A stretch of DNA of 64,000 nt from Yuukianura sp. NJ FZ-2021. Its lineage: Eukaryota. Location of the stretch: contig CM102289.1 of NCBI GenBank assembly GCA_046563655.1, positions 4,774,001 through 4,838,000 of the forward strand. Reading direction: 5' to 3'. Under the pieces are notes generated by a model. That model searched no databases and had not been told where the DNA came from. It worked only from the letters and a program-made list of their open reading frames with translations. Positions 1-57,824 of the stretch are shown here, one piece after another. Positions within the stretch are counted from its first letter, which is position 1. Each line of letters begins with the position of its first letter. The translations under genes and the position numbers were made by a program.

Positions 1-3000
1 TGTCCTTACAGAACAAACTCTTTGCACCCAAATTCAACTACATGGGGTTCTACCTCGTGCGACTGGACTCCGCCATTGAAGAACCATCTCTAGTTGACGA
101 CTGGGAAGATCATATGCGAATCTATAGGGATGATTTAAAATGGCTACTCGGACTTCCTCATCACAAGTTCTGGTCGGCACTTGTTTATTCGGAGCCAATT
201 TCTCAGCATGTTCTCACGTCGTATCTCATCCAAGCGCCACGGCCGCATGAGCACAGCTACAAGGAATACTTTGCTCACTCGAGAATTGGCCCTCTCCTAG
301 CACAAATACATGATTTCGTTTTCAGAATTTTTTTACGTCTGTCAACCTTCAAAGAAACCAAGGTTAGGCCCTGATAATTGATTCACCTCGGGGTTGTTGG
401 ATTTGTTCAAGTTGGAACTCAATCGGTTTAATTTTGTGCTTTACAGGAGGATCACATCACACCCAGCAAATGGGCTACTCTCATCTACGACCACTACTTG
501 TTCGACGTGCCGAAGTTGTTTGATCTCGTTGTCCTTTACGGCTCTAGCCGAAAGCAAATCTTAACCAAGATGATTGACAATGTTCTTAGCCATCAACCAA
601 ATTATCTCCACGACTTCAGTGCAACTCTTCCCATTTACGTTGGAAAGTGGTTAATGCAAAGCGAGCAGCTAGGAAGCCTGGTGCGGAAACAAAAGCAGTT
701 CAGCAGCGGACAATGGGATTATACTGGCTTTGAAGACATCATTCTTTTCAATGTCGATCAAGCAATCTCGCTTTATAAGCTTATCGATATCCATCCTCCA
801 TTTGCCATTGCCGCTCATACAACATCTGAGTTCGAGGTCACGTAAGTTCCGTTTTGCCTTAAAATGCTGTATAATATTATGCTTCAGAATTTCTGGGTGA
901 TTTTTGTGTATTCAGAATCGGTGCCAGTTACGAGCAAGACGTCCAGGAGTGGAAGAAAGTTATTCAACACTTACCGCAGTTGGAAAGTCTTGTAAACACA
1001 TGGAGAGTTTACATGCTAAAACTTTTCCGACTTGTACTGGCGTCTTCGACGATTCAAACTGTTGAGAGACCTCAAAAGTACGTTCTTACATCGACCTTCT
1101 GTCTATAAACGTTGTATCTAAGGATTTTTTTTTTATTTTAGTGGTGCTGTGGATGAGTTCCTGGGAGTTATTTCCAACTGTTTGGAGTCATGCATCTTTT
1201 TATATGACTATGACAAAACATTTCCTTTTGCCGCAGATATAGATGAACTACGTCGCAGAGGAGTTTATGTGTAAGTTAACTCAACCATTCTATTCGGCTG
1301 TATGCTGTTTTTCTTAATTTCAACGATGTCTTTACACTTTACCGTTCGAAATGCTATTACGTTGGTTAGCATTTTAGTAATTGAACCCTTTCCCTCTCGG
1401 GAAGGGTTCAATAACCTAACCTAGAATTGTAGAATTGTAACACCGTCAAATCGCACGCTCCGAATTGAAAAATCCTGAAGTTACGTTGTGGCTCCTTGTT
1501 AGCCTATGACTTGTTAGCCCAGGTTGTAATGCTTATGTCAACTGAAGAGTACGTGGTACAATCACTCTCTCACCCTAAACCTCTTCTCTTTTACAGAGAT
1601 TCGACCCGGGTAGAATATCTTTCGAACGCTGTTGCAGCAGCATATGAAGCGTGCGGACAGCGATATCAAGCTGCAAAAGTAGAAGTACCTGACACAGTCC
1701 CTGACCCTCTGAACGATCCAACGTTTGACAGGCAACTTCTAGGAGCATGCTCTCTCGATGTGGTTGGTCCTGAACTTATTTCTCTCGTCTCTCAAGTCAA
1801 GGATTTGTTACCTGATCTACCAGACGCTTACATAGAGGTACACTCATTACTGAATACAAAAGTTTACCGAGAAATTAAAGTTATACTTTCTTATTTCATA
1901 GGCATGTTTGAAACACTTTGGATATCAAACGGAGACTGCTATAAATGCTATTCTGGAAGGCTCGGTGCCAACCCACTTAGAAAAGTTTAAGGAGACCAGA
2001 CTTGAGCCAGTTCTTAAGCTGGACAAAGATGCAATGGAAATGGAACTGCTGTACAGAAGGTGTTATTGAAAATTGAGTTATCGACTCCGCCTTAAGTAGT
2101 GTTTTAAATATTTGTGGTTTGATGTGAACGACAGGAGAGATGCCATTCAAGATTTGCTTCCCTCTCGAGACGTAAAGCAACGGGTCCTAGAATGTTATGA
2201 AGCTCAAGAGATGCGGAAATGGACGAATGCTGAGGAAGAGAGACCGGACGATTATCTACACAAGTCACTTCTTCCAGCGTTTCGGGAGGACATTGAATAT
2301 CAAGATGAATATGACGATACATATGATGAAGGTAAGAAAAAATAACCTTTTGGTGTGCTACTTTTGGTGAATTATTGGGGTCTGCTAAGATTGGAGAATG
2401 TAAAAGCACATTGTGCTTTGTGCATCGCATTTTAACCGAAAACATACATCTCTTGTAAAATCACTTTTCATTTCCGCAATATCTTTAACAAAAATGTCAA
2501 TGTTAGTAGACGGGTACTCACTCAATTTCTTTCCATCATAATATTGCATGTAAATGGAAAGCGTTGTGTTGTATACAATCGCGACGCTTTGGACAACATT
2601 TAGAACATCGTTGAATATTTTCAACAACTAGCACAAAGTCGCCCTTCCATACGCATATTTTTCGATGATGCAAAAGCATCGTATTACTATCCGTATTACT
2701 ATTACTATCCGGAACAAGTTGTTACGCAACTTCTTCCCAATTTAGTAATTTAATTACTCATCCACTAAACGTGAGCAATACCACCTTGACTTTCATTTAG
2801 AAACTTAACGCTTGCGAATTTAGAATCCAAGCTTCAAATTCCGAGCTTTTGCGAAACTCGCGATGAGATAAGTTGTAAGAACACCCTTAAACAAATTTTT
2901 CGTGTGTCTTTTACTGTGTTATACGCTTCGACGAGATTGAACACCACCAACACAGTCTGGTTTTTGATTCTCCCGTCTTATCTAGTACACCTTAAGTAGT

Positions 3001-6000
3001 ACTTTGTAAGATAAGGAAATTTCGTAGTGGTTAAATTAAGGGACTTCTCTTCCGCTCTAATTTGTAAACCCAACCTTTTCCGTTCCTATCCTTACGTTTT
3101 TCCCGGGCCCTTAGCAGTTTCACCTTAGAAGGGGGTTTCTTCCCTTCCAAGGGCCGACCGGTCACTCAAGGTCACGACTTGACCCCCTTTTTACCTCTGG
3201 TAGTAGCAGAAAGAATTTGGCCTCAGTTGATCAGCTACTCCAGCCCGTTATTGATCTCGAGTACTCCAGCCCGAAAATCCAGAATAATCCCGCACCCCAG
3301 TGCCGCACCAACCAACTCCAAACGAACCGAACCAACCAGTACTTACTACCAATAATTCATGCCGCGGTACACAGCAATTTTAGGGGTCACCAACCCCGTG
3401 ACATGAGACTGAGATGTTGTGAGTTCAATTCCAAACAACAAAAAGAGAAAACCGCGCCGCGCCGCTTTACCGCGCTCAACTCGCTAAGTTAATGTGAAAA
3501 CCAATGAGAAAACCAAATGAGAAAAACTCTAATTGAAACCAAACGTGAATCTCTAATTGAAAACCAGTTAATTGAACGGTAAAATGAAACGGTAAACGAA
3601 ACGGTACTTTACAGAAAACGAAACGGTATGAAACGAAAATGTCGAACCCTAAACCGACAGAGTAACAACCCTAACCAACTCTCCCGGGATCGCCACACGG
3701 AGAGGAACCTCAGCAGCAGGCGGGTATCCCGACCACAATCTGCCCATCCACCAACAAGCCCCCGAGTGCATGGAAGATAGCCTGTAGCTGCCTTCTCCCA
3801 TGGAAAAGGCACTCTCAACCATGTACTCCTTTCCCAATTTTAAACAACAAAGGAGAACAGCAGCTGATACTAAATGTGCTTAGTACTAATCAACTTTCTT
3901 CTAGGAGTTGATTAGTACTAAGTTTAAAACGATTCGGAGTCCCTAACTTCAATTAAAATTCGATTAATTAGTTGTGGTTGAGTTTGTGTTTTTTCCTGGC
4001 TTTTGACTTGGAAGTGAAAAGATGAGAAGTGGAAGAGTTGTCCCTACAGTACCAATAGAGGGCGCGCGCTTCTCCCTTTCTTATGAACATGACGCTATTT
4101 TTGCAGTCTCACAACATCCCCCCTCACAAAGCCACGAAGCGGTCAGTACACTTCTTATTCAACATTTTCTCTCCCTGACCCGACTTCCCATTTCCATTCT
4201 GAAGTATTTACAAGAATTCTTACGTTCTAGATTTAACTTGAAGTTTAACATTTTTTTAAAATCAAAAGAAAAATTAATTTTTAATTTAACTATGGGGACA
4301 AAAATCATTTAGGACGAAAGCGAAAAAATTAGAAGGGAGGGATTCCAGTAGTAAGTGATCCAAAGTCCAATCCAGTTCAAAATTACAGGCAGAAGCCTCC
4401 AGGGTCTTCTCCATCCGCCGTTACTCGTCCAGACAACAGTCTCCGTTTCTGGCGGCCATCTTTCCATTTCCAGTCCACATCCAGTTGCATCTTTCCTCGG
4501 AAAGGCCAAGTCCCATCTCTTTTCCTCTGCACGAATCCATCATTGGGGAAACGCGCCTGTGTCGTAGTCAAATCCAGGTTTACTCGCTTCCTCCTGTCCA
4601 TGTCCAACTGAGTTGTCTGGAACTCAGAGAAAAGACGAGCATTAGAGTCATAATCGGGTTTGTCATTTATTTCATTTAATTTTACGCGCCGCTGGCGTTG
4701 CGTGCGTTTGTCCACTACTCTTTCGCAACACGGTTCAATGCAGGACAGTGACATGACAACTACTTCGGAATCTGTGATAGCCTCGGTACTGCCGACAGTC
4801 ACTTCTGCCCAGTCTTCCCAATGTTCAACTTCTGTGGCGATGCATTCTTCAGAATTACAGCCAAAAGTCCCAGTAATCTCTTGCCAAACTTCAGAAGTGT
4901 TGTCGCCCAATGCCGCCGTTCCAAACTGACAATGGCTTTCTTCTGGAGGATCCAACGAACATGAAACTTCCGTCTCTCGAATCAGAGTTTCCGAAGCAAC
5001 TTCGTCTTGGCTCGATGAGAGGCTAGTGCAATTCTCAAAGGCATCAATCAGTCCACAGTATTCAAACCCCGAATCTTCCAAAGATTCTTGCTCCATGTCC
5101 ATTCCAGTATCAAACGTCGAAGAGTGAGAAGCGAGAACCACCGTCGTGCCAGACTCCTGGGTCTGCGCATGAGTACGAGGCTCATCACCGCCCTTCCAAT
5201 CATTTCCTACAGTAGGGCGCTCACTCGTGATTCCCTTGTAGATCCCACTCTGATTTTCCGAAGACATAGGAGCAAACGATACCGAAGACGAATCGTCAAC
5301 GTACGAGTCCACAGGAACTGCCAGTTCCCTTGGGTCAATACCATTCCCCCTCTGCCTTGAAAACCTTTGAGAAGCCCCACCAAAACTTGACCTCTCCCTC
5401 TGACCTCGAGACTTCCATCCATGCCTGTCAATCCATCCAGAATCAGCGTCTGTGGAATGGTTGCTCCCATGGTAGGAGAGTCCAGGGTCAATGACATTGC
5501 CTGTTGTTGGCTCGTGGTACATGTTGTCCAGAGCGATTCTTCTTTCAACTTCCTCGGCTGCTTTGTACAGCTCCCTTGTGTCTGCAAAGCGTTGGCCGAT
5601 CCATCTGAGTCTGTCTCTTGATTCTGGGTTCATCAGTTCAATGACCTGCATGACCTTCTGTTCTTCACTTGGTGAAAATTCCAGCTTGTCGAAGAGTGAG
5701 CACATTGTCAGCACATAATCGGTCAACTTTTCTTCTCTGCCTTGGTAGCGATCCAGAAGTGCTCTCTTCAGCTCATATTGGTAATTCGGGTGTTCAAACT
5801 TGCGTCGGAATTCGGAACGAAACGTACTCCAACTGTCCAGGATCTTGAAGATGAACTGATACCAAATGGCAGCCATTCCTGAGAATGCTACTGGCAAGAC
5901 TTGCTCCATCATGTCCTCTTCGCAGATTCCCCAAACCTGCATGTACCGTTCCAGTTTCAGCAAATACTCGTACGGTTGTACGCAGTAGCTTCCATCAAAC

Positions 6001-9000
6001 TTCGGCAGAGGGCAATCTCTCCGATTCAGTATCTTCCGATCCACTTGCGGTACTTTGTCAGCCATTTTTGTCCGGGTCACTGCCTCAGCACAACCATTTT
6101 TCTGTACTTTACGCCTGCGCCCGCTCTTTTCCATCTTTGTATTTAATTTTAACTTTAACTTTGATTTTGCGCGCGTAGTGGACAAATCATCGTTTGGATT
6201 TGAACTCTGACATCTCTTGTTACTGACCGATCTACCGCCTAAGGGTTTCCCGTCTGAGCCCCCATGTTGTAAGATACGATTTTTCCAGTGGCCAATTAAG
6301 GGCTACAAATCCGGCTCTAATCTGAAACCCGCCCTTTCCGTTCGCTATCCCTTACGTTTACTTGACGGGCCCTTAGTAGTTTCACCTTAAGAAAGGGTTT
6401 CTTCTTTCTTAAGGGCCGATAGAAGGCACTTCACACTCCAGAAGGGTCAACAACCTGAGAATTTGCACGTAGACTTGGCCTCTCTCCTCGCAGTCCAGTG
6501 ACCTTGACCTCTGACCTTTGACTTTCGACTCCGACAGAGAAAATGACAACTCGATTCGTGAAACCGTTAACCAATCAGAAAGCTCTCCAGTTAATCAATC
6601 TTAATTGCTAGGTGACCGAAAACTCCAATTAACTCCAATTAATGACTCGTTAAGTTGAAATGAGATAAAAGAAATTGAGAAATTCCAGAAGTCAGCTGAT
6701 TCGAAGATAAATAAACGTAAACACGAATAACCTTTGACCCAATTGAATGTGTGAGCAAAACAGAGTTCAAATACCAGAGACAATCCTAATTAGAAAACCC
6801 GCGTACGCGTGCGTAGCGTTAATTGATTGAATTAATTGAGAAAAACCGATAAAAACTGAATTAAACTGAGGAAAACTGATTTGAAACCGATTTAAATTGA
6901 TGGAAAACTGATTTAAAACAATTACAATTTAATGCGCGTTGAGTGAAACAAAAAGGAAATTGAATTACGCGCAGTTCCCGTCACTGAAGGTGAACAAAAG
7001 AACAAGAAAACCGAAACGCCAAGAAAACGCGTAAACTTTAACGACGAAAACGACTTTAACGACGAAAAAGACTTTAACGTGAAACTTTAAGTGGTTCTCC
7101 GGATCACCCCGAGCAACCAAACCCTGGGCAGTATGCTGGAAGCCAGCAACACCCTGCCAATACCTGTAGTAGTCCCCGGTCGTCCTTCGAGCATCAATTC
7201 AGCAGCGTTTCCCCCTGGTTTACTGTGTACTGGAAAAGGCATGCCTGGCAGTGGAAAGGCAGGCCAAGGTCTCCTTTCTAGGCCAAAAGGCATGCTTGTC
7301 CATGCACATTGAACCATTAATTAAGGTAGTTTAGGTAGTTGATAGGTAACGGAACTTTAGTGATTTAAGTAGATTAGGATTTTAGTTAATTTTTAGGATA
7401 GTTTAGTTTTAGGTAATTAGCGTTAATTAGTTGGATAATTAGTTTTAAGTTTTGTCTATCTGTTTGCTTGGAAAAGTACTGGGTGCTGCGGCGGTAAAGT
7501 GCGGGAACAGTTTTGGTTTAAATTTGAGTGAAATCTTTCCAGAGGTTTCACTCAAATTCTCACTAGATGGCGTATGCCGTCCAGGGCTCTTTGTGAAGTG
7601 ACGCTCTGTTTTTTGTGCTCTCACAACTTCCCCCCTCCAATTGGCCCGAAAGTCATCGTGTTGAGAAATATTATTTAGCAGACTCTAATACTATTTACAA
7701 AGTAACTGTGACTCTAAATTGTTTGGAAAAATTTAAGTATTTCTTACTTAGAACTGAATTTATAATTGAATAAATTGAAAAACTTGAAGAATCCTCTTGA
7801 GTACTAACGTAGAAGGCAAGGAAACAAGATAGAATTAATTTGAAAAATGACCATTAACTGGAAAGGAAACGATGTCTTCAATCGTCTTCATCCGAGTCCT
7901 TGAACCCAAATTTCTCCTTCTTCATCATTCGAATTTTTCCATTGATCCTGAAGTTATCTCTACCCTCTTTCTCCAGAATCTCCACTCCCTCGAGTTGAGT
8001 CAGCGTCTCAATTCCACGGTGGAGTGCAGGATGAAGGAAGGCGCTGACTCCATCGCCGAAGTTCCACTTCTCCAGAAGGTCATCATCTGCAACGTCGGCT
8101 CGGGAAAGCTTCGGAGGTCGTCTGGGAGTCTCAGCCTGGGTCATACCCTTCTCCTTCTTGATTCTCACCCATGGAATGATTGGGGCCACTTCTGGAACTT
8201 CTAGGCGAGTGATCGGGGCTTCTGGGCGAGTGATTGTGGCCTCGGGCTTCTTCTTTGGAGGAGACTTGGAAGTTCTCGGGGCCGTCATTGGAACTGGAAG
8301 ATCGGCTGAAGTAATGGTGGATGATGGAATCTGCTTCACCGGAACTGACAACTTGGACTGAACTGTCTTTGAGTTTTTCGCTGTGGTCAACTTGAGGGGC
8401 TGAGCAAAGAGGTCGAACTGTGGAGGACTTGGAGAACGACCTCGAGCTTTCTTGGCAATCTGCCTCCGTTCCAGTGCTGCCTTCTGCTTCGCCATTTGAG
8501 CTGTGGCTGACAATTTGGCTGGCTTTTGCTGCTCTAGTTCTTCCTTCCGCTTCTTCTCCAGAAATTCGTCCATGTTCACAAGTGCTTCCACCTGTCTCTC
8601 CTTGGGAACTCCGAACTTCAGCCAGGTATTCATGGGAGCATCTTCTTGTTTCTGCTTCTGTTCTGCCTCGAAAACATCCATGATTTTCTGAACTTGACGG
8701 ATTGGAAGTCCTTGGCTGCGTTTCTTTGGTGGTTCGTATTTCTTCGGCGGAATGTAAGGCCGATCTGTCGTAACCCAAGCTGGAGCTCGCACTGTCAAGT
8801 CTCTCTTGTAGACATCTTTGCCTGGTTCGTTGGAGAAGGAGATCGAGATCACACCTGGGTCGATACAGAAGGAAGGAGGACGCTGAAGCCAGTGGTCGTC
8901 CATTGTTTTGAAATTGAAATTTTGGACTTTGATTGTCCCCGTCTGCCATCTGGGATTTCTCGCAGTGTTGAAGGCATCGGCCTTTTTCGCATCTCGAAGT

Positions 9001-12000
9001 GCTGAGGATCGGCTCACAAATTTGTGTTTCTTCGGAGGAGGAGCGTAGTACGTTGGAAGAATTGGCGGTGGAGGTTGAGGCTGGGACTGGCTCGGATTCA
9101 CTGGGAATGCAATCGGAGGTGGCTCTCGTGTCGGCACTGGTGGAATTGCCAAGTCCCCGAGTCGAATTCCCCCGACAATCATGTTCGGATCCAGATTGCT
9201 CATTCTGGAAGCAACAATAGAAAGGTCGGCAATCAGAAACATGGACTTCACCAACAAATTCGTTCGCGCCAATTGAGTTTAACATTAGGATTGTCTCATT
9301 TTTCTTTCCCGCGACAACAAAAGGACCTTCGAACTTGTTCATGAGAGACGCAGTGATTCCTTTCGCAGCGTTCGACAACACCCTTGATTTACGCAGAATC
9401 AAATCTCCAATCTCATAAGTCACTTCTTTTCTCTTTTTGTTGTACTGTGACATGTACTCTTTTTGAGAAGAAAGTTGATTAGCTTTCGCCAATTCCCAAA
9501 CGTAATTCATTCTCTCTGCCATTTCCTGAGTGTCACTACTTTGACCACCCGGAATTTCCAAAACATTGTCAAACGGAGTTCTCAACTCCCGTCCAAAATT
9601 TAAGTAAGCTGGTGAGAATTTCATGGTTTGATTGACACTTGAATTGAGCGCGAAGCTCAATTCTGCCAAGTATCTGTCCCATTCTTTACATTTTTCGATA
9701 GTCGCAACTATCATTGACTTTAAAGTTTCGTTGTATCTCTCAGTCACATTAGGTTGAGGATGATAAGGTGGAATGAAGAGAGCGTTTACACCAAAAGATT
9801 TGCAGAAGTCCTTGTACACGTTACTTTTCCCGAATGCTGGTCCGTTATCGGCGACAATTGTGGAAGGAAATCCCCAGCGACAGAAAACTTGCCAAAGTTT
9901 CTTTGTTACGACGTCTGCTGTTCCGCTTCGCAGAGGAAAGAGTTCGACCCATTTTGTGAAGTTGTCAACGACGACGAGAAGAAACTTGTTCTGAAAAGAA
10001 CTTCTGGTGTAAGGGCCCATCAAATCAATGTAGAGGTTTTCCCACGGCCGCTTGACTTTTGGAGATGTTCCGAACCCTGCTGGCTTGACTTTCCAGGCTT
10101 TTGCGAGTTGGCAGTCTTCACAACTTTTGACGAAATTTTGAGTGTCTTTGCGCATGGACTTCCACCAGACTCTTTTCTCCAACTTCAAGTAAGTTTTCGA
10201 CGTTCCAAGATGACCACCGATTTTGCTGGAATGAAAATGACGCAGGCAAGTCTCTCTGAGTGAATGTGGAATCCAAAGTCGCCAATGGGTTCCGTCGTCT
10301 TCCCACGGACAGTGAATGTTCCCAATGTACTTGTACAAACAGCCAGATTCGTCAACAAAAGCGGATTCTGCGCGGCGGACAATGTAGTTGTTGTGGTCTC
10401 TGGAGTTCGTAGCCGGCAATTCTTCGTTCTTCAAAAATTTGATGATTGGACCCAGTTCTGCGTCTTGAATTTGTGCATGAGCTAGTTCGTCTTTGTTCGG
10501 AATGTAGTCGGATTCAAGCGTGAGGACTTCGAAGGCACGGGAAAGAGCATCTGCTGTTCGATTCAGAGCGCCTGACCGGTACTTGATCTGATACTTATAG
10601 CCTTGGAGCTCAAGAGCCCACCTAGCCAATCGTCCCGTCGGTTCTTTGATTTTCTGCAGCCACGTCAGCGCTTGATGATCGGTTTCGATTGTGAATTCGG
10701 TAAATTCCAGGTACGCTTTGAATTTCTTGACGGCGTAGATTACGGCGAGACATTCCTTCTCTGTGATGGAGTAATTCAGCTCTGCCCCGTTGAGCTTCCG
10801 GCTGATGAACCAAACTGGAGATCTTCCTTGTTCTGTCTCTTGTAATAGTACTGCACCGATTCCGAGCCCACTGGCATCGCATTGAATTGAAAATGGTTTG
10901 GACAAATCTGGTAGACTGAGTTCGACTTGTGACTGGAGTGTTTTCCGCAAATAATCAAAGCCCTCTTGGCATTCTTTAGTCCATTTGAAAGTTTCAGACT
11001 TCCGAAGAAGTTTAGAAAGTGGAGCAGCTTTAATGGAGAAATCAGGGACAAACTGGCGATAGTATCCAGTGAATCCCAAAAATCTTTGAATGTCTTTAAC
11101 GTTTCGAGGAATTTGATAATTCGTTAAGGCTGAGACTTTGTCAGGGTGGGGACGACATTTGCCCGCCTCAATGACATAGCCAAGAAAGTCAATTTCAGAT
11201 TTACAAAACGCTACTTTTTTCGGATTTATGGTAAATCCTGCTTCAAACATTGTTTTAAAGAAAGCACGTAGATGAATCATGTGTTCTTCTACCGTCTTTG
11301 AGAAAACCAAGAAATCATCGAAAAATCCAAGGACACAATTAAATCTCAACTTGTCCATCACCATGTCCATGGCTCTTTGGAACGTTGCCGGGGAGTTTTT
11401 CATCCCTTGTGGCGTTCTTTTAAATTGGTACAGACCCCGAGGGGTAATGAAAGCTGTCTTAGGCCGGTCCTCGACCGCCACACCGATTTGAAAAAACCCA
11501 TCTGAGAGATCAAACTTTGACATTACGTGACCTTGAGAGAGATAACAGAGAATGTCGTCTATTCTTGGCATTGGGTACTTGTCGTCCTTCGTGACCGCAT
11601 TAACTTCTCGGTAGTCCACACAGAACCGGAAACTGCCGTTCTTCTTTGGAGTCAGTAGCACGTGGGAGGCCCAAGGACTTCTCGCAGGCTCCACCAAGTC
11701 GTTCGCAATCAGTTTGTCAAGTTCGTCCAGCAAAATGTCTCGTTTAACTGAGGTCATAGGGCGAGGGTGACAGAAAATCGGTTTCGCGTCTCCAGTGTCG
11801 ATTCGGTGCTCAAAGACAGAACAGAAACCCGGCTTCTTCGTGAAAATACTGGAAAAATCTGAGATAATTCCCCGCAGTTCCCTCGAGTGATCAACCGGAA
11901 GGTCAACGCCCTTCATTAAGTCGTCGATTAGTTCAACATTCTCAAGACCCTCAGACAAGGAGCACTCCAAAAGCTCATCTCCCTCATCTAAACCACAATT

Positions 12001-15000
12001 TGAGAACGGCATGTCCAACAGACCATTGCCCGGACCACCTGACAACTCCAACGACGAAGAGTGGGAATCGGAGACCACCGTCGTGCCAGACTCCTGGGTC
12101 TGCGCATGAGTACGAGTCACATCACCGCCCTTCCCAACATTTCCTACAGTAGGGCGCTCACTCGTGGTCCCCCTGTTGAGCCCACTCCGACTACGAGACG
12201 ACTTTGTTTTTGGTTTGACCTGACTTGGAAGATTCTTTGGGTCTGAATCGAATGCAGTTTCGGATTTTGAAAAAGAAAACTTGGGCTGGTCATCACTCCC
12301 GATCAACCACCCAGAAGGAAAAACCCCAGCGTTAAACTTTGAAAGAAAATCTCTGCCCAAGACCACAGAACGAGACAAATTAGGACTAACGACAAAATGC
12401 TGCTTACACTTTCCTCCCTGCCACTCCACCGTGAGGTCAACTGCTTCATCTGTGATGAATGTACCCGCCGCCTGACGAATAGAATGAGGAGATTTTAGAA
12501 GACGAATGTTGAATGTTTTAACGAGATGCAAAATTTGACCTCCCACAAGTGAAATTGAAGATCCGGTGTCTAACAAAGCTTCGAAGGCCTGATTCAGAAT
12601 TTTAACAGAAACTAATGGTGGAGAATTCTCTACTTCGGTACTCAAAGATTCGGCTGTATTGCAATTTGAAACGGAATTGGTAAGATGATCTGGAGCTACG
12701 GAAGTTAGGAGATTTCCCCGGATCGGAGCTGGAGTTATTGCTGACCCGGGGTTTTGCCGTTTCCCGAGGGCAACGACTGTGACGTACTTTGAAGCTTTGG
12801 ACAGTCTCGGCGCCAATGCCCGGATTCCTTGCAGTTGAAACAGTGTTGAGAATTGTTCGGAACTTCGGCTCCTGTGCCATTGATACTGGGTCTCATGTCC
12901 GGAGGCAAGAGACGGTCGTAGGCTGGTTTGAAAACTTGAGTGGTGCGAGGAACGAAGCTGTTTGTCGGAAGAATGCTGTTCTGTTGTGCTGGAGCCCTTG
13001 GTTGCTCTGTTCTTGGTGCCGAATTGGTAACTGGCAAGTCCTGAGTCTGCGCAGGCTTGGATTCTGGACGCTGTCCCTGAGTTTGGTAGTTTTGCGTACC
13101 CTGAGTACTCTGATTTTGATAGCGGGGAGCATGATCTCTGCGAGGCTGTCCACGATTGTCGTCTTGTCGGTGCTGGCTCTGTTCCGGTTTCGCAAAGGCC
13201 AGTCCTGGATCAATGTGAGAAAATGTCGCCGGCTCCTTGTAGGCCCTGTCCTGCTCGATGCTCTTCTCCACGTTGCATGCTTCTTGGTAAAGCTCCATTG
13301 TAGTTCGGTAACGTTTTCCAGTTTGTTCAAGTCTGCGACGAGAATCTGGGTGTAGAAGTGTCCAAATATTTTTGAGAATCTCTTCTTCCGGTGGACAGAA
13401 GGTCAGCTTGTTGTAGAGATTGCGCATGGCCAGAATGTAGTCAGTGAGTCGCTCCTCCTTCCCTTGGTACCGGTCCAGAATGGCCTTGGAGAGTTGACGC
13501 TGGAAATCGGCTGGTTCGAACTTGTTTCGGAATTCTCGACAGAAATCCGTCCAAGTAAATAACCGATGACAAATGAAGCGATACCACGTGGAAGCATCTC
13601 CCTCCATGGAAATGGGCAGAACCAAATCCAGCATCTGCTGCTCTGACAACTCCCTACTCTTTTGAAATTTTTTGAGCTCCAAAATGAAATCGTACGGCTG
13701 AACCCTGTCCTTACTACCTCTGTACTTTGGAACCTTAATGTCGCCTCCCTTCAACACATTCCCTGACTTGGACGGTCGCCTGGCCGAAGAATCCCGACGG
13801 CAACGACTCGAGGGTTCATCGTCACTCGAAAGTTCATCCGAATTCCCCTCGGTAAAGACTCGAGACGGATTCCGCGACTCAGCAACCGGAAGTGACAAAG
13901 AAGCCAACTGTGCCATCATTGTTTTCAAATCATCTTTAAGTTCATTAACTCCGGAGAGTTGTTCTTTAAGTTTGTCCATGTCTTTGCGCATGGCATCGAC
14001 GGCTTTTAATTCAGAAACGTGAGTGTCAACAACTGGTTGTTCTTTAGGTATACACGGAGGTGGTGTACTTTGTCGACTGCGCGAACCTCTGCGTGATTCT
14101 CTCTCCTGACTCTCCCCCTCCTCAAAGTCAACGCTCGCCCTGGCCCTTTTGTTCTTCTTTCCTCGCGGCGCCATTTTTGTATTGTTACTTCCGCTTTTGC
14201 TCAATCAGTTCCTTCTATCTACTACTCAAGGATTTCCCGTCTGAGCCCCCATGTTGTAAGATAAGGAATTTTCGTAGTGGTTAAATTAAGGGACTTCTCT
14301 TCCGCTCTAATTTGTAAACCCCCTTTTCCGTTCCTATCCTTACGTTTTTTCCCGGGCCCTTAGCAGTTTCACCTTAGAAGGGGGTTTCTTCCCTTTCAAG
14401 GGCCGACCGGTCACTCAAGATCACGACTTGACCCCCTTTTTACCTCTGGTAGTAGCAGAAAGAATTTGGCCTCAGTTGATCAGCTACTCCAGCCCGTTAT
14501 TGATCTCGAGTACTCCAGCCCGAAAATCCAGAATAATCCCGCACCCCAGTGCCGCACCAACCAACTCAAACGACTCGAACCAACCAGTACTTACTACCAA
14601 TAATTCAAATGCCGCGGTACACAGCAATTTTAGGGGTCACCAACCCCGTGACATGAGACTGAGATGTTGTGAGTTCAATTCCAAACAACAAAAGAGAAAA
14701 CCGCGCCGCGCCGCTTTACCGCGCTCAACTCGCTAAGTTAATGTGAAAACCAATGAGAAAACAAATGAGAAAAACTCTAATTGAAACCAAACGTGAATCG
14801 CTAATTGAAAACCAGTTAATTGAACGGTAAAATGAAACGGTAAACGAAACGGTACTTTACAGAAAACGAAACGGTATGAAACGAAAATGTCGAACCCTAA
14901 ACCGACAGAGTAACAACCCTAACCAACTCTCCCGGGATCGCCACACGGAGAGGAACCCTCAGCAGCAGGCGGGAATCCCGACCACAATCTGCCCATCCAC

Positions 15001-18000
15001 CAACAAGCCATCCGAGTGCATGGAAGAGAGCCTCTTACTGCCTTCTCCCATGGAAAAGGCACTCTCAACCATGTACTCCTTTCCCCATTTTAAACAACAG
15101 AAGAAAACAGCAGCTGATACTAAATGTGCTTAGTACTAATCAACTTTCTTGTGGGAGTTGATTAGTACTAAGTTTGAAATGATTCGGAGTCCCTAACATT
15201 AATTAAAATTAGATTAATTAGTTGTGGTTGTGTTTGTGTTTTTCCTGGCTTTTGACTTGGAAGTGAAAAGATGAGAAGTGGAAGAGTTGTCCCTACAGTA
15301 CCAATAGAGGGCGCGCGCTTCTCCCTTTCTTATGAACATGACGCTATTTTTGCAGTCTCACAACATCCCCCCTCACAAAGCCACGAAGCGGTCAGTACAC
15401 TTCTTATTCAACATTTTCTCTCCCTGACCCGACTTCCCATTTCCATTTTACAGTATTTACAAGAAATCTTAAATTCTAGATTTAACTTGAAGTTTAACAT
15501 TTTAAAAAATCAAAAGAAAAATTAATCTTTAATTTAACTATGGGGACAAAAATTCATTTAGGACGAAATTCGAAAAATTTACAAAGGAGGGAATCCAGCA
15601 GTAGGCAATCCAAAGTCCAATCCAGTTCAACATTACAGGCAGAAGCCTCCAGGGTCTTCTCCATCAGCAGTCACTCGTCCAGACAACAGTCTCCGTTTCT
15701 GGCGGCCATCTTTCCATTTCCAGTCCACATCCAGTTGCATCTTTCCTCGGAAAGGCCAAGTCCCATCTCTTTTCCTCTGCACGAATCCATCATTGGGGAA
15801 ACGCGCCTGTGTCGTAGTCAAATCCAGGTTTACTCGCTTCCTCCTGTCCATGTCCAACTGAGTTGTCTGGAACTCAGAGAAAAGACGAGCATTAGAGTCA
15901 TGATCGGTGATGTCATTTGTTTCATTTAGTTTTACGCGCCGCTGGCATTGCGTGCGTTTGTCCACTACTCTTTCGCGACACGGTTCAATACTGGACAGTG
16001 ACCTGACAACTACTTCGGAATCTGTGATAGCCTCGGTACTGCCATCAGTCACTTCTGCCCAGTCTTCCCAATGTTCGATTTCTGTGGCGATGCATTCTTC
16101 GAAATTGCAGTCAAAAGTCCCAGTAATCTCTTCCCACACTTCAGAAGTGTTGTCGCCCAATGCCGCCGTTCCAAACTGACAATGGCTTTCTTCTGGAGGA
16201 TCCAACGAACATGAAACTTCCGTCTCTCGAATCAGAGTTTCCGAAGCAACTTCGTCTTGGCTCGATGAGAGGCTAGTGCAATTCTCAAAGGCATCAATCA
16301 GTCCACAGTATTCAAACCCCGAATCTTCCAAAGATTCTTGCTCCATGTCCATTCCAGTATCAAACGTCGAAGAGTGAGAAGCGAGAACCACCGTCGTGCC
16401 AGACTCCTGGGTCTGCGCATGAGTACGAGGCTCATCACCGCCCTTCCAATCATTTCCTACAGTAGGGCGCTCACTCGTGATTCCCTTGTAGATCCCACTC
16501 TGATTTTCCGAAGACATAGGAGCAAACGATACCGAAGACGAATCGTCAACGTACGAGTCCACAGGAACTGCCAGTTCCCTTGGGTCAATACCATTCCCCC
16601 TCTGCCTTGAAAACCTTTGAGAAGCCCCACCAAAACTTGACCTCTCCCTCTGACCTCGAGACTTCCGTCCACGCCTGTCAATCCATCCAGAATCAGCGTC
16701 TGTGGAATGGTTGCTCCCATGGTAGGAGAGTCCAGGGTCAATGACATTGTCTGTTGTTGGCTCGTGGTACATGTTGTCCAGAGCGATTCTTCTTTCAACT
16801 TCTTCGGCTGCTTTGTACAGCTCCCTTGTGTCTGCAAAGCGTTGGCCAATCCATCTGAGTCTGTCTCTTGATTCTGGGTTCATCAGTTCAATGACCTGCA
16901 TGACCTTCTGTTCTTCGGTGTTTGGAGATTCAAGCTTGTCGAAGAGTGAGCACATTGTCAGCACATAATCGGTCAATCTTTCTTCTCTGCCTTGGTAGCG
17001 ATCCATCAGTGCTCTCTTCAGCTCACGTTGGTAATTGGGATGCTCGAACTTGCGTCGGAATTCGGAACGAAACGTACTCCAACTGTCCAGGATCTTGAAG
17101 ATGAACTGATACCAAATGGCAGCCATTCCTGAGAATGCTACTGGCAAGACTTGCTCCATCATGTCCTCTTCGCAGATTCCCCAAACCTGCATGTACCGTT
17201 CCAGTTTCAGCAAATACTCGTACGGTTGTACGCAGTAGCTTCCATCAAACTTCGGCAGAGGGCAATCTCTCCGATTCAGAATCTTGCGATCCACTTGCGG
17301 TACTTTCTCAGCCATCTTTGTGCGGGTCACTGCCTCAGCACAACCATTTCCCTGCACTTTACGCCTGCGCCCGCTCTTTTCCATCTTTGTATTTAATTTT
17401 AACTTTGACTTTGAATTTACGCGCGTAGTGGACAAATCATCGTTTGGATTTGAACTCTGACATCTCTTGTTGCTGACCGATCTACCGCTTAAGGATTTCC
17501 CGTCTGAGCCCCCATGTTGTAAGATAAGGAAATTTCGTAGTGGTTAAATTAAGGGACTTCTCTTCCGCTCTAATTTGTAAACCCAACCTTTTCCGTTCCT
17601 ATCCTTACGTTTTTCCCGGGCCCTTAGCAGTTTCACCTTAGAAGGGGGTTTCTTCCCTTTCAAGGGCCGACCGGTCACTCAAGATCACGACTTGACCCCC
17701 TTTTTACCTCTGGTAGTAGCAGAAAGAATTTGGCCTCAGTTGATCAGCTACTCCAGCCCGTTATTGATCTCGAGTACTCCAGCCCGAAAATCCAGAATAA
17801 TCCCGCACCCCAGTGCCGCACCAACCAACTCCAAACGAACCGAACCAACCAGTACTAACTACCAATAATTGACATGCCGCGGTACACAGCAATTTTAGGG
17901 GTCACCAACCCCGTGACATGAGACTGAGATGTTGTGAGTTCAATTCCAAACAACAAAAGAGAAAACCGCGCCGCGCCGCTTTACCGCGCTCAACTCGCTA

Positions 18001-19092
18001 AGTTAATGTGAAAACCAATGAGAAAACCAAATGAGAAAAACTCTAATTGAAACCAAACGTGAATCGCTAATTGAAAACCAGTTAATTGAACGGTAAAATG
18101 AAACGGTAAACGAAACGGTACTTTACAGAAAACGAAACGGTATGAAACGAAAATGTCGAACCCTAAACCGACAGAGTAACAACCCTAACCAACTCTCCCG
18201 GGATCGCCACACGGAGAGGAACCCTCAGCAGCAGGCGGGAATCCCGACCACAATCTGCCCATCCACCAACAATCCACCCGAGTGCATGGAAGAGAGCCTC
18301 TACCTGCCTTCTCCCATGGAAAAGGCACTCTCAACCATGTACTCCTTTCCTAATTTTAAACAACAGAGGAGTACAGCAGCTGATCTAATTGTGCTTAGTA
18401 CTAATCAACTTTCTTCTGGGAGTTGATTAGTACTAAGTTTGAAATGATTCGGAGTCCCTAACATTAATTAAAATTAGATTAATTAGTTGTGGTTGAGTTT
18501 GTGTTTTTTCCTGGCTTTTGACTTGGAAGTGAAAAGATGAGAAGTGGAAGAGTTGTCCCTAAACTACCAGTAGAGGGCGCGCGCTTCTCCCTTTCTTATG
18601 AACATGACGCTATTTTTGCAGTCTCACAACTTGACTGTTTTATTTGTTGTTTATGTATTGTAGCTGGAATGGGAATGACGGAACCGGATGCAATGCCTTT
18701 AAATCATAAACTACAACCTCGATATAATGACGAAGAAGGAAGCGACGATGAAGCTGAGGCGAATGGAAAATCTGGTGGATTTGAGGCGTTTGTGGAAGAC
18801 CCAGCAATTGTCCGCGCGAGGATGGAGCAGAGGCGAGCTGACAAGTACAATAGAGGTCGAGGTCAGAGGAATCCCGGACAATTTCAAAGGGATGTCGTGG
18901 GTAAGTCGGATTGCCATTTGATATATCGCAGTTTTGTATTTGTTCTTTGTGTATGCCAGTATTTCTTCTTTACCAGGAGTGGCGAAAGGTCATGGCCAAA
19001 GTGCTGAAGTTGTTCACAACCGTCGTAGGAAAGACGAAGCGGGAAGCCACAATCGTCGGAGGGGAGCTGATTTCAAGCGTAGAGAGTTCTAA
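1..19092 (+). CDS. ASCC2: Activating signal cointegrator 1 complex subunit 2 (CUE domain), multi-exon, 5' end outside the window; the intron 2332-18663 holds the retroelement array
   Basis: Motifs WLLGLPHHKFWS, FLRLSTFKE, FDVPKLFDL, CUE-like LVSQVKDLLPDL and YQDEYDDTYDE (exon ends 2331, G|gtaag). Splicing to the acceptor at 18663 restores the frame (EAGMG...FVEDPAIVRARMEQRR). Last exon 18977-19092 reads GVAKGHGQSAEVVHNRRRKDEAGSHNRRRGADFKRREF*, matching the ASCC2 C-terminus pattern. Confidence 0.9.
3005..4113 (-). repeat. LTR type A, copy 1 (3' LTR of the array)
   Basis: TGTAAG...TCTCACA, about 1.11 kb, alignable to 14255-15362 and 17518-18628; PPT adjacent at 4114-4125. Confidence 0.95.
4114..4125 (-). 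promoter_or_regulatory. Polypurine tract (further PPTs at 7626-7638 and 15363-15374)
   Basis: Minus strand GAGGGGGGATGT, or GGAGGGGGGAAGT at 7626-7638, immediately 5' of an LTR. Confidence 0.85.
4383..6134 (-). CDS. Gag-only ORF of the non-autonomous element, copy 1 (capsid domain plus acidic extension; no CCHC, PR, RT or IN)
   Basis: First ATG at 6134 (frame open from 6185). Retrotransposon capsid motifs PKFDG..QPYEYL, AAIWY, WSTFRSEFRRKF, DRYQGREEKLTDY, homologous to the Gag at 12735-14174. Confidence 0.85.
   Translation of the reverse strand: MEKSGRRRKVQKNGCAEAVTRTKMADKVPQVDRKILNRRDCPLPKFDGSYCVQPYEYLLKLERYMQVWGICEEDMMEQVLPVAFSGMAAIWYQFIFKILDSWSTFRSEFRRKFEHPNYQYELKRALLDRYQGREEKLTDYVLTMCSLFDKLEFSPSEEQKVMQVIELMNPESRDRLRWIGQRFADTRELYKAAEEVERRIALDNMYHEPTTGNVIDPGLSYHGSNHSTDADSGWIDRHGWKSRGQRERSSFGGASQRFSRQRGNGIDPRELAVPVDSYVDDSSSVSFAPMSSENQSGIYKGITSERPTVGNDWKGGDEPRTHAQTQESGTTVVLASHSSTFDTGMDMEQESLEDSGFEYCGLIDAFENCTSLSSSQDEVASETLIRETEVSCSLDPPEESHCQFGTAALGDNTSEVWQEITGTFGCNSEECIATEVEHWEDWAEVTVGSTEAITDSEVVVMSLSCIEPCCERVVDKRTQRQRRVKLNEINDKPDYDSNARLFSEFQTTQLDMDRRKRVNLDLTTTQARFPNDGFVQRKRDGTWPFRGKMQLDVDWKWKDGRQKRRLLSGRVTADGEDPGGFCL
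6247..6264 (-). promoter_or_regulatory. Primer-binding site, tRNA-Pro-like (identical copies at 14234-14251 and 17497-17514)
   Basis: TGGGGGCTCAGACGGGAA, 3 nt after the LTR end; TGGGGGCTC is complementary to the 3' end of eukaryotic tRNA-Pro (..GAGCCCCCA). Confidence 0.8.
6268..7625 (-). repeat. LTR type B (about 1.36 kb, single copy)
   Basis: TGTAAGATA...CTCTCACA, flanked by a PBS and a PPT. Alignable to LTR-A only over about 150 bp at the PBS-proximal end and about 60 bp at the PPT-proximal end. Confidence 0.88.
7033..7091. repeat. Short tandem repeat (about 19-bp unit ACTTTAACGACGAAAA.G, about 3 copies) inside LTR-B
   Basis: Seen directly. Confidence 0.75.
7878..9203 (-). CDS. ORF3 of the autonomous element: 441-aa Pro/Lys-rich protein of unknown function at the env position, not Env-like
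   Basis: ATG at 9203, one nt after a branch point-pyrimidine tract-CAG acceptor; intact frame; no signal peptide or transmembrane stretch visible. Confidence 0.75.
   Translation of the reverse strand: MSNLDPNMIVGGIRLGDLAIPPVPTREPPPIAFPVNPSQSQPQPPPPILPTYYAPPPKKHKFVSRSSALRDAKKADAFNTARNPRWQTGTIKVQNFNFKTMDDHWLQRPPSFCIDPGVISISFSNEPGKDVYKRDLTVRAPAWVTTDRPYIPPKKYEPPKKRSQGLPIRQVQKIMDVFEAEQKQKQEDAPMNTWLKFGVPKERQVEALVNMDEFLEKKRKEELEQQKPAKLSATAQMAKQKAALERRQIAKKARGRSPSPPQFDLFAQPLKLTTAKNSKTVQSKLSVPVKQIPSSTITSADLPVPMTAPRTSKSPPKKKPEATITRPEAPITRLEVPEVAPIIPWVRIKKEKGMTQAETPRRPPKLSRADVADDDLLEKWNFGDGVSAFLHPALHRGIETLTQLEGVEILEKEGRDNFRINGKIRMMKKEKFGFKDSDEDD
8131..12765 (-). CDS. pol: Ty3/Gypsy Pol (PR-RT-RH-IN), reached by -1 frameshift from gag, with a long C-terminal extension overlapping ORF3
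   Basis: PR LLDTGSS; RT FCVDYREVN..LGFFDDFLV; RH QCDASGLGIG..TEKECLA..TDHQAL; IN H-x6-H..C-x2-C, IDLMGP, VADNGPAF, ERYN, GPF. Domain order is Gypsy-type; no internal stops. Confidence 0.95.
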   Translation of the reverse strand, partial: GKRQNPGSAITPAPIRGNLLTSVAPDHLTNSVSNCNTAESLSTEVENSPPLVSVKILNQAFEALLDTGSSISLVGGQILHLVKTFNIRLLKSPHSIRQAAGTFITDEAVDLTVEWQGGKCKQHFVVSPNLSRSVVLGRDFLSKFNAGVFPSGWLIGSDDQPKFSFSKSETAFDSDPKNLPSQVKPKTKSSRSRSGLNRGTTSERPTVGNVGKGGDVTRTHAQTQESGTTVVSDSHSSSLELSGGPGNGLLDMPFSNCGLDEGDELLECSLSEGLENVELIDDLMKGVDLPVDHSRELRGIISDFSSIFTKKPGFCSVFEHRIDTGDAKPIFCHPRPMTSVKRDILLDELDKLIANDLVEPARSPWASHVLLTPKKNGSFRFCVDYREVNAVTKDDKYPMPRIDDILCYLSQGHVMSKFDLSDGFFQIGVAVEDRPKTAFITPRGLYQFKRTPQGMKNSPATFQRAMDMVMDKLRFNCVLGFFDDFLVFSKTVEEHMIHLRAFFKTMFEAGFTINPKKVAFCKSEIDFLGYVIEAGKCRPHPDKVSALTNYQIPRNVKDIQRFLGFTGYYRQFVPDFSIKAAPLSKLLRKSETFKWTKECQEGFDYLRKTLQSQVELSLPDLSKPFSIQCDASGLGIGAVLLQETEQGRSPVWFISRKLNGAELNYSITEKECLAVIYAVKKFKAYLEFTEFTIETDHQALTWLQKIKEPTGRLARWALELQGYKYQIKYRSGALNRTADALSRAFEVLTLESDYIPNKDELAHAQIQDAELGPIIKFLKNEELPATNSRDHNNYIVRRAESAFVDESGCLYKYIGNIHCPWEDDGTHWRLWIPHSLRETCLRHFHSSKIGGHLGTSKTYLKLEKRVWWKSMRKDTQNFVKSCEDCQLAKAWKVKPAGFGTSPKVKRPWENLYIDLMGPYTRSSFQNKFLLVVVDNFTKWVELFPLRSGTADVVTKKLWQVFCRWGFPSTIVADNGPAFGKSNVYKDFCKSFGVNALFIPPYHPQPNVTERYNETLKSMIVATIEKCKEWDRYLAELSFALNSSVNQTMKFSPAYLNFGRELRTPFDNVLEIPGGQSSDTQEMAERMNYVWELAKANQLSSQKEYMSQYNKKRKEVTYEIGDLILRKSRVLSNAAKGITASLMNKFEGPFVVAGKKNETILMLNSIGANEFVGEVHVSDCRPFYCCFQNEQSGSEHDCRGNSTRGLGNSTSADTRATSDCIPSESEPVPASTSTANSSNVLRSSSEETQICEPILSTSRCEKGRCLQHCEKSQMADGDNQSPKFQFQNNGRPLASASSFLLYRPRCDLDLLLQRTRQRCLQERLDSASSSLGYDRSALHSAEEIRTTKETQPRTSNPSSSENHGCFRGRTEAETRRCSHEYLAEVRSSQGETGGSTCEHGRISGEEAEGRTRAAKASQIVSHSSNGEAEGSTGTEADCQESSRSFSKSSTVRPLCSAPQVDHSEKLKDSSVQVVSSGEADSIIHHYFSRSSSSNDGPENFQVSSKEEARGHNHSPRSPDHSPRSSRSGPNHSMGENQEGEGYDPG
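12716..12765 (-). promoter_or_regulatory. Programmed -1 ribosomal frameshift signal
   Basis: G GGA AAC heptamer (12765-12759) in the gag frame, 7-nt spacer, then stem CCCCGGGTC / GATCCGGGG; pol is in the -1 frame. Confidence 0.85.
12735..14174 (-). CDS. gag: Gag of the autonomous element (coiled coil, capsid, CCHC zinc knuckle)
   Basis: ATG at 14174; capsid motifs; CFNCKESGHWRRDC knuckle. Confidence 0.93.
   Translation of the reverse strand: MAPRGKKNKRARASVDFEEGESQERESRRGSRSRQSTPPPCIPKEQPVVDTHVSELKAVDAMRKDMDKLKEQLSGVNELKDDLKTMMAQLASLSLPVAESRNPSRVFTEGNSDELSSDDEPSSRCRRDSSARRPSKSGNVLKGGDIKVPKYRGSKDRVQPYDFILELKKFQKSRELSEQQMLDLVLPISMEGDASTWYRFICHRLFTWTDFCREFRNKFEPADFQRQLSKAILDRYQGKEERLTDYILAMRNLYNKLTFCPPEEEILKNIWTLLHPDSRRRLEQTGKRYRTTMELYQEACNVEKSIEQDRAYKEPATFSHIDPGLAFAKPEQSQHRQDDNRGQPRRDHAPRYQNQSTQGTQNYQTQGQRPESKPAQTQDLPVTNSAPRTEQPRAPAQQNSILPTNSFVPRTTQVFKPAYDRLLPPDMRPSINGTGAEVPNNSQHCFNCKESGHWRRDCPKLQSTSQSLPSGNGKTPGQQ
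14255..15362 (-). repeat. LTR type A, copy 2 (shared: 3' LTR of Gag-only copy 2 and 5' LTR of the autonomous element)
   Basis: TG...CA, PBS on one side and PPT on the other, no TSD. Confidence 0.95.
15633..17384 (-). CDS. Gag-only ORF of the non-autonomous element, copy 2
   Basis: Same length as copy 1 with about 30 amino-acid differences by eye; intact. Confidence 0.85.
   Translation of the reverse strand: MEKSGRRRKVQGNGCAEAVTRTKMAEKVPQVDRKILNRRDCPLPKFDGSYCVQPYEYLLKLERYMQVWGICEEDMMEQVLPVAFSGMAAIWYQFIFKILDSWSTFRSEFRRKFEHPNYQRELKRALMDRYQGREERLTDYVLTMCSLFDKLESPNTEEQKVMQVIELMNPESRDRLRWIGQRFADTRELYKAAEEVERRIALDNMYHEPTTDNVIDPGLSYHGSNHSTDADSGWIDRRGRKSRGQRERSSFGGASQRFSRQRGNGIDPRELAVPVDSYVDDSSSVSFAPMSSENQSGIYKGITSERPTVGNDWKGGDEPRTHAQTQESGTTVVLASHSSTFDTGMDMEQESLEDSGFEYCGLIDAFENCTSLSSSQDEVASETLIRETEVSCSLDPPEESHCQFGTAALGDNTSEVWEEITGTFDCNFEECIATEIEHWEDWAEVTDGSTEAITDSEVVVRSLSSIEPCRERVVDKRTQCQRRVKLNETNDITDHDSNARLFSEFQTTQLDMDRRKRVNLDLTTTQARFPNDGFVQRKRDGTWPFRGKMQLDVDWKWKDGRQKRRLLSGRVTADGEDPGGFCL
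17518..18628 (-). repeat. LTR type A, copy 3 (5' LTR of the array)
   Basis: TG...CA followed by the TSD ACTT. Confidence 0.95.
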
Positions 19093-31620: not shown

Positions 31621-31830
31621 CTACTGATTCCAGCTTAGGTAACTTGCAAATCATCTGTACTCATCCACACTTAAACCAGAAACCGAACCCTCCGAGCCTC
31701 TATGGATACTTTGCTTCATATCAAAGGGAAATGGAATTCCTGAATCCGTAATTACGCTTCTAAAAACCAAAAATACACCTGTACAAGATAGGTGCTATAG
31801 TTATAGTTTTATAGTGGACGGTAATTTATG

Positions 31831-55246: not shown

Positions 55247-57824
<2,578 letters not shown>

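Follow-up and report, generated by a model that had tools for sequence, protein, structure and literature searches.

How does a retrotransposon that encodes little more than a capsid-like protein gain entry to the particles of another element? The usual answer to what particle-sharing elements have in common is long terminal repeat (LTR) ends, the primer-binding site (PBS) and the leader. To our knowledge, the RNA features that let non-autonomous LTR retrotransposons use foreign particles are poorly known beyond yeast and a few plant families; the internal domains of LARD elements reportedly contain conserved RNA structure. The question is raised anew by a locus in a 64,000-nt stretch of DNA from Yuukianura sp. 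NJ FZ-2021 (assembly GCA_046563655.1, contig CM102289.1, positions 4,774,001 to 4,838,000; hereafter the window, whose numbering we use throughout). Here an intact-looking Ty3/gypsy (Metaviridae-type) element, the helper, stands between two copies of a gag-only element, the satellite, all on the minus strand, and the two kinds of element share a 93-nt block of coding sequence that is almost identical. We tentatively read this block as a candidate cis-acting RNA element on the sense-strand genomic RNA rather than as a recombination tract, a preference that we hold with somewhat less than even confidence. The two readings are not mutually exclusive.

The block occupies 5137..5229 in satellite copy 1, where it encodes residues 303-333 of a 583-aa open reading frame (ORF), 16387..16479 in satellite copy 2, and 12074..12166 in the helper, where it encodes residues 349-379 of the 1692-aa pol frame; the reading frame is the same in both elements. 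The original prediction had described these three copies as nearly identical, with synonymous sites conserved, and had placed the helper copy between protease (PR) and reverse transcriptase (RT) in a pair of elements whose capsids are only about 40% identical. Each of these statements was borne out. In a minus-strand alignment of the three copies, the two satellite blocks are the same (as they are over 211 aligned columns), and 4 of the 93 positions are different in the helper (satellite 5200, 5198, 5182, and 5180, corresponding to helper 12137, 12135, 12119, and 12117). All four differences replace amino acids, at two spots (D-W versus V-G and E-P versus V-T); none of the differences within the 93 nt is synonymous, and the first that is synonymous is the base directly 3′ of the block. 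In the helper, the block lies in the linker between the RVP domain, which ends at residue 294, and the RVT_1 domain, which starts at residue 521, and capsid identity amounts to 41.6% across 209 aligned residues. The corresponding self-BLAST match (5110-5250 versus 12047-12187) covers 142 nt at 89.4% identity with an E value of 8e-45, so the similarity is not due to chance, and weak homology extends about 26 nt beyond the block on each side. The two satellite blocks are not independent witnesses, however, since both fall inside a 529-nt tract (5416-4888) without any difference between the satellite copies. The block is situated ca. 2.1 kb downstream of the PBS in the helper and ca. 1.0 kb downstream of it in the satellite, outside the 5′ leader and the start of gag.

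What sets the block apart is the level at which it is conserved. In a sensitive blastn comparison of satellite and helper, matches were confined to the block, the core of gag (60%), the final ~155 nt of the LTR (78%), and the junction of the polypurine tract (PPT) with the LTR start (72%); judged by this comparison, the block appears to be the sole internal island of high identity, the other such patches being known cis sites. In 93-nt windows, 38 to 60 bases are identical across gag and 88 to 89 in the block. Where helper and satellite have the same residue, they also use the same codon in 27 of 27 cases in the block, compared with 42 of 87 cases in gag and, in the aligned sequence flanking the block, 7 of 22, and synonymous differences resume in the codons just past the block.

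Conservation of the block can also be followed in a relative of the helper. Among 1391 matches to the helper Pol, the best is a protein designated P0001 (ca. 62% identical), the next best being ca. 37% identical. In an alignment of eight sequences, the block peptide is found in the helper, the satellite, and P0001 and is missing from five more distant Pols. Between helper and P0001, 22 of the 31 block residues are identical, compared with 8 and 7 per 31 in the adjoining linker windows and 19 to 29 per 31 in RT, and the edges of the island conserved in P0001 match those of the nucleotide block to within about one codon. On these alignments the block appears to be a conserved island in an otherwise free linker, limited to a narrow clade. 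P0001 differs from the helper at 9 of the 31 residues, including the four codons at which satellite and helper differ. A profile search with the block against 1.84 billion representatives (E<=0.001) returned four hits (P0122 and three that were inspected); among the inspected hits P0001 was the only true one, and P0121 and P0123 were rejected as carriers of the peptide, being unrelated repeat proteins. A word search with 58 aa, aimed at longer proteins, had no hits, a weak negative in that it missed P0001 too. A degenerate block pattern had 0 matches in a bacterial and archaeal contig collection, which says little for eukaryotic relatives, and a search with the Pol alignment against bacterial and archaeal contigs matched 137 pattern stretches, none of them a relative, which likewise says little.

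Consideration of the flanks suggested that the block may be the core of a larger folded unit. This candidate structured domain comprises the block plus two closing flank helices and covers 131 nt, at 5121..5251 in satellite copy 1, at the equivalent 16371..16501 in satellite copy 2, and at 12058..12188 in the helper. In the minimum free energy (MFE) fold of the helper domain (-51.4 kcal/mol), an outer 8-bp helix and a 9-bp helix, both formed from the diverged flanks, close the inner hairpins of the block. We examined the fate of this fold in the satellite, a comparison that involves only two independent DNA sequences (satellite and helper) and that was devised after the fold had been seen. When the helper fold is imposed on the satellite, 8 of the 15 differences in the 131 nt fall at paired positions, and a single pair is broken. 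Random relocation of the same 15 changes breaks a mean of 5.3 pairs (P 0.0047); a null with fixed positions and random new bases gave a P of 0.0086, and one stratified by flank and core gave a P of 0.0056, with means of 5.0 to 5.3 broken pairs across these tests. For the BLAST-bounded 141 nt, a local null gave a P of 0.014. RNAalifold returned a consensus of 40 pairs, none broken in either sequence and 6 of them variable; in one of the variable pairs both sides change, A-U becoming G-C through substitutions at two synonymous third positions that lie 96 nt apart. All four in-block differences are unpaired in the consensus structure. In the consensus pair count, 77 of 78 cells are paired, compared with 44 to 53% in slid registers. 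The bases that the P0001 protein forces permit 38 of the 39 pairs, 11 of which are forced and 27 possible, and make 1 impossible, compared with 11 to 16 impossible pairs in slid registers; they also impose two two-sided changes (A-U to G-C and C-G to U-A). The RNA-element reading accounts for the codon identity, for why the block coincides with the P0001 island, and for flank substitutions that preserve pairing.

Much also weighs against that reading. Folding of the sense strand is unremarkable: measured against dinucleotide shuffles, the 93 nt have z scores of +0.10 and +0.39 and the 141 nt have z scores of -0.75 and -0.12. The two hairpins drawn in the original prediction do occur in the helper MFE fold, and in part in that of the satellite, but the sense-strand energy is no better than that of the shuffles. 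The nucleic-acid-level signal proposed there is supported in part, by an identity that exceeds protein conservation (27/27 codons versus 42/87) and by the flank substitutions that keep the two closing helices, and not by any unusual stability of the fold. The helper-type structure is not the MFE fold of the satellite (-41.9 to -42.5 versus -47.3 kcal/mol, i.e., 5 kcal/mol above it), the reverse test, starting from the satellite MFE fold, breaks 7 pairs in the helper (P 0.93), and a 171-nt version was not significant (P 0.28). The substitution test is post hoc, and with its two independent sequences a shuffle control is powerless (273/500). Within the 9-bp helix there are five flank changes, four of which exchange C and U opposite G and so keep pairing automatically, and the pair compatibility of P0001 follows largely from peptide similarity. 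A search of the whole window against Rfam 15 gave no family match, and a further Rfam scan gave two matches at chance level (E 0.8 and 0.95; 14-16 bits against cut-offs of 49). Since the block is not invariant in P0001, the near-identity of satellite and helper requires either coevolution or recent exchange, and for the block to be better conserved than U5 (78%) is unusual between helper and parasite and agrees with a recent exchange. Finally, nt 429-4979 of Ty3 are dispensable in cis when the proteins are supplied in trans (PMC4974528).

Other features of the fold are noted here as observations in their own right. One 7-mer in the 3′ flank is able to pair with either of two partners, a 7-mer in the 5′ flank or a near-copy of that partner within the block; the competing sites are 5164-5170 and 5244-5250 in the satellite and 12101-12107 and 12181-12187 in the helper. 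The MFE folds of the two elements differ because the satellite pairs perfectly with the internal copy of the 7-mer and the helper with the flank copy, and this competition could represent an alternative conformation or be due to chance. At the top of hairpin 1, all three copies have an 11-nt near-palindrome interrupted by a mismatch at its center, and a self-duplex of the block scores no better than shuffles do. Long-range pairing between the block and the U5/leader or PPT/U3 regions was sought, as were self-dimer duplexes, and none outperformed shuffles. The U3 regions of two satellite LTRs (4043-4065 and 15292-15314, minus strand) contain the 7-mer of the hairpin-1 stem and the 8-mer with which its loop starts, with eight extra bases between them; we take this look-alike to be a chance occurrence, as the helper LTR has no such motif and the third satellite LTR has only an altered form.

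Several quite different causes could leave two elements with the same 93 nt. It might be supposed that selection acts on the protein alone, with a 31-residue peptide needed in both the helper Pol and the satellite protein and the DNA identity a by-product. The shared reading frame, the retention of the peptide in P0001, and the purifying selection on the C-terminal half of the satellite ORF (pN/pS 0.37) would all suit such an explanation. At the codon-sharing rate of gag (42/87), however, 27 matches in 27 would have a probability of ~0.48^27, or ~2e-9 by our arithmetic, and synonymous differences begin right where the block ends. Given the 27 identical codons, we reject protein-level selection as the sole cause, and consider it very improbable in that role; it is possible as a second, contributing constraint. 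A signal on the other strand or at the DNA level (minus-strand cDNA or an antisense transcript that folds, or DNA that binds a protein) derives some appeal from the fact that the antisense (plus-strand) 93 nt do fold better than shuffles (z -2.04 in the satellite, 6 of 200 shuffles being as good, and -2.70 in the helper, 1 of 200). Nevertheless, the antisense hairpin is short, and the substitution test applied to this strand shows no preservation of its fold (5 of 7 affected pairs break; P 0.28). Moreover, several of the conserved sense pairs are of the G-U type and would read C-A in the antisense, which points to the sense strand, and the block contains no copy of the PPT core, which rules out a central PPT. 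We therefore regard this explanation, too, as highly unlikely.

A stronger competitor is that the block is a recent template-switch or gene-conversion tract that coincides with a conserved peptide motif, such as a docking motif or a site processed by the protease in a disordered PR-RT linker, and carries no nucleic-acid signal at all; this seems to us a realistic if not a leading prospect, and a recent conversion tract limited to a few copies is what the original prediction itself had named as its refutation. Residual similarity might have let RT switch templates in a mixed particle, or adjacent copies might have converted one another; the helper version would have passed into the satellite, or the reverse, at about the time that the satellite copies diverged. 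The divergence of the block (4/93, or 4.3%) is close to that between the satellite copies themselves (3.9% internally and 3.2% in the LTRs), their differences are patchy, with the block inside the longest difference-free tract (529 nt), and the locus is itself a recombinant composite with shared LTRs and AAGT on its outer flanks; these three points also count against an RNA element. Furthermore, with P0001 changed at 9 of 31 residues, satellite and helper are closer than long-term constraint alone predicts, the sense strand has no thermodynamic signal, and the four differences, all replacements at codons that vary in P0001 too, form the pattern expected of a protein-level filter. Yet a recombination tract leaves the pair-preserving substitutions in the old, diverged flanks unexplained (P ~0.005-0.014), and the satellite contains no other helper-like tract. 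The satellite copies differ from each other at 28 sites in gag, and of these the helper agrees with copy 1 at 12, with copy 2 at 9, and with neither at 7, so that conversion from helper to satellite elsewhere in gag gives no signal. The coincidence of the tract edges with those of the P0001 island, to within about one codon, would be fortuitous for a random tract, although homology-guided switching could yield it, and the lack of synonymous changes at ca. 23 synonymous sites beside four replacements is a further, weak objection.

Returning to a cis-acting RNA element, the block may be the core of a ca. 130-nt signal within the PR-RT linker coding sequence of a Ty3/gypsy element. The satellite lacks a nucleocapsid zinc knuckle and all enzymes and so must be recognized, packaged, and copied by helper proteins; it would keep the helper's version of the element, as it keeps the LTR tips, PBS, and PPT that the two have in common. 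Encapsidation or copackaging (dimer formation) with helper RNA would be the most probable role, and the match between satellite and helper might be renewed occasionally by template switching in mixed particles and then held by selection. We infer that RNA is the acting molecule, that it acts in cis, and that it serves packaging or dimerization. In its fullest form, this amounts to a Ty3/gypsy lineage whose packaging or copackaging signal is a structured RNA domain of ca. 130 nt in the PR-RT linker rather than in the leader, and a gag-only satellite that continually matches the helper's copy, a scenario that is, taken whole, rather unlikely. The segment would then be a coding-embedded "password" of parasite and helper, constrained both as peptide and as RNA. 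If so, an element embedded in pol and common to a gag-only parasite and its helper would be a new place in which to seek such signals, and the 93 to 131 nt would offer a handle on packaging specificity and on the coevolution of parasite and helper at a single RNA domain. If the block is instead a recombination tract, it would record a very local exchange between helper and parasite and, together with the composite, would be evidence that their RNAs meet in the same particle.

Some other functions for a block in this position were considered and set aside. A frameshift stimulator was rejected, the slippery site being ca. 600 nt upstream of the block. Dual coding was likewise rejected, as the other two sense frames both stop within the block's first 25 nt, and on the plus strand no ORF of at least 120 aa crosses it. 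In the satellite, an ORF of 140 aa in an alternative frame terminates within the block; the helper has no counterpart of it.

The satellite ORFs (583 aa each) lie at 4383..6134 in copy 1 and 15633..17384 in copy 2; the former encodes a gag domain, then the block, then an acidic tail. ORF and domain analysis against Pfam found a Retrotrans_gag domain only, with no zinc knuckle, PR, RT, or integrase (IN). Copy 2 is 4374 bp long (18628-14255). With TG...CA LTRs, a PBS, a PPT, and a single gag-domain ORF, the satellite has the makeup of a gag-only non-autonomous element, and the original prediction that it forms a pair with the helper is supported both by this ORF and by what the two elements have in common, namely, the LTR termini, a 22-nt PBS stretch, the PPT core, and ca. 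78% of U5. Two copies are visible in the window, both within one composite. Comparison of their ORFs gave a pN/pS of 0.31 (26 synonymous and 29 replacement differences), which indicates that the satellite protein is under purifying selection and that the two copies did not descend from one RNA. Overall, the copies differ at 160 of 3427 aligned columns; by our tally, this includes 83 of ~2154 internal positions (3.9%) and 35 of ~1109 LTR positions (3.2%). The differences are patchy, with difference-free tracts of 529, 233, and 229 nt (4888-5416, 5797-6029, and 4423-4651) and, between them, clusters of as many as 8 differences in 16 nt. One such cluster, at 5667-5682, resembles a short local frame change in copy 2. 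No relatives of the satellite ORF were detected among 7928 candidates, and the Atlas search returned generic gag clusters only.

In the helper, gag (479 aa; 12735..14174) encodes Retrotrans_gag and zf-CCHC domains, and the pol frame, open from stop to stop at 8131..13209, is in the -1 frame relative to gag. Pol has the order PR-RT-RNase H-IN in one open frame of 1692 residues, with matches to RVP (196-294), RVT_1 (521-680), RT_RNaseH (768-871), Integrase_H2C2 (980-1038), and rve (1061-1151). A GGGAAAC heptamer at 12759..12765 (gag frame G GGA AAC), eight codons before the gag stop, sits where a -1 frameshift into pol would be expected, and frameshifting presumably takes place there. Beyond the integrase, the pol frame continues for ca. 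350 codons of low-complexity sequence, and the stretch at 7878-9278 (minus strand) is rich in proline and lysine and has no Pfam match.

These elements make up a 15.6-kb composite of LTR retrotransposon units (3005-18628, within 3001-18632 of the window), in the 5′-to-3′ order LTR-satellite-LTR-helper-LTR-satellite-LTR, the internal LTRs being shared by neighboring units. A first satellite-type LTR (TG...CA; 17518..18628) precedes the internal region of satellite copy 2. A second (14255..15362) serves as both the 3′ LTR of that copy and the 5′ LTR of the helper and is followed by the helper internal region (7626..14254). The helper-type LTR (6268..7625) ends the helper and at the same time begins satellite copy 1, serving as 3′ LTR of the former and 5′ LTR of the latter; after the internal region of that copy, a third satellite-type LTR (3005..4113) closes the composite. 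The two LTR types are alike only in their first ~60 nt (72%) and their last ~155-220 nt (77-83%). An autonomous element is expected to have two matching LTRs, and the helper does not (its 5′ LTR is satellite type and its 3′ LTR helper type); because these are unlike, we take this copy to be a recombinant in an array that mixes two element types. The 22-nt stretch holding the PBS directly follows the LTR and is identical in the helper (14233..14254) and both satellites (17496-17517 and 6246-6267), and the only minus-strand occurrences of the PPT core are the three PPT sites themselves (4125, 7637, and 15374). AAGT is found at both outer flanks of the composite and may be a 4-bp target-site duplication.

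The remainder of the window is eukaryotic chromosomal DNA, with host exons downstream of the composite. These include an exon of an acetyl-CoA transporter (Acatn; E 5e-41) at 29601-30110 (plus strand), protein kinase exons at 55941-57157 (plus strand), and a PCI domain at 63081-63449 (minus strand). Other mobile-element remnants are seen at 34945-35331 and 37587-38012 (both minus strand) and at 31828-32460, together with short local repeats; one remnant ORF ends like a copia-type Pol C terminus (our reading, with no Pfam hit), and another has a weak match to DUF5641.

How does this arrangement compare with known systems? The closest analogues of the satellite are the TR-GAG elements, plant non-autonomous LTR retrotransposons of less than 4 kb with a gag ORF only (PMC4350172). 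Like them, the satellite has LTRs, a PBS, a PPT, and one gag ORF and presumably relies on an autonomous partner. Unlike them, it slightly exceeds 4 kb (4374 bp), lacks the zinc finger that TR-GAG1 has (PMC4350172), adds a C-terminal half derived from the PR-RT linker, and resides in a host with animal-type genes rather than in a plant. No packaging or dimerization structure was found in the TR-GAG leader, and in the portions available an internal block shared with the partner is not described for TR-GAG (PMC4350172). Autonomous and non-autonomous partners are also known from wheat (Wilma/Sabrina/WHAM and Angela; PMC9744471) and from BARE1 and BARE2 (PMC4350172), and there, as here, partners have in common only the sites that the machinery recognizes: LTR termini, PBS, and short motifs. 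Segment transfer by gene conversion or template switching has been proposed for such partnerships (PMC9744471, PMC4350172). The shared motifs of the wheat and BARE elements lie in the LTR and at the PBS, whereas here the best-conserved piece (89/93 nt) is internal and coding and ranks above U5. Complex LTR-retrotransposon insertions with shared LTRs have been attributed to template switching or to recombination after insertion (PMC1950507). Our 15.6-kb composite, with its LTR-sharing internal units and the same four bases on its outer flanks, resembles these; it differs in having three units of two element types and satellite units that did not come from one RNA (pN/pS 0.31).

Cis-acting sequences within coding regions have precedents. 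In Ty1, they lie partly in gag, and in Ty3, RNA localization and packaging depend on untranslated regions or POL sequences, with the zinc finger of nucleocapsid being critical (PMC4974528). The essential cis sequences mapped in Ty1 and Ty3 are near the ends, and the available text of that paper does not describe a discrete element in the PR-RT linker (PMC4974528). Concept searches of the open-access literature gave no prior case of an internal, coding-embedded block common to helper and parasite. The nearest parallel is perhaps cis-acting sequence II (CAS II; also the Pol encapsidation sequence, PES) of foamy viruses, a cis-acting packaging RNA inside pol that works together with a 5′ element (PMC3705302). 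The likeness is that of a packaging-linked cis sequence within the pol coding region; CAS II is much longer and belongs to the 3′ portion of pol (PMC3705302), its function is proven by vector assays, whereas our block is known from sequence alone, and no relation in sequence or structure is to be expected. If the block does act as proposed, it would be the retrotransposon counterpart of this pol-embedded packaging sequence.

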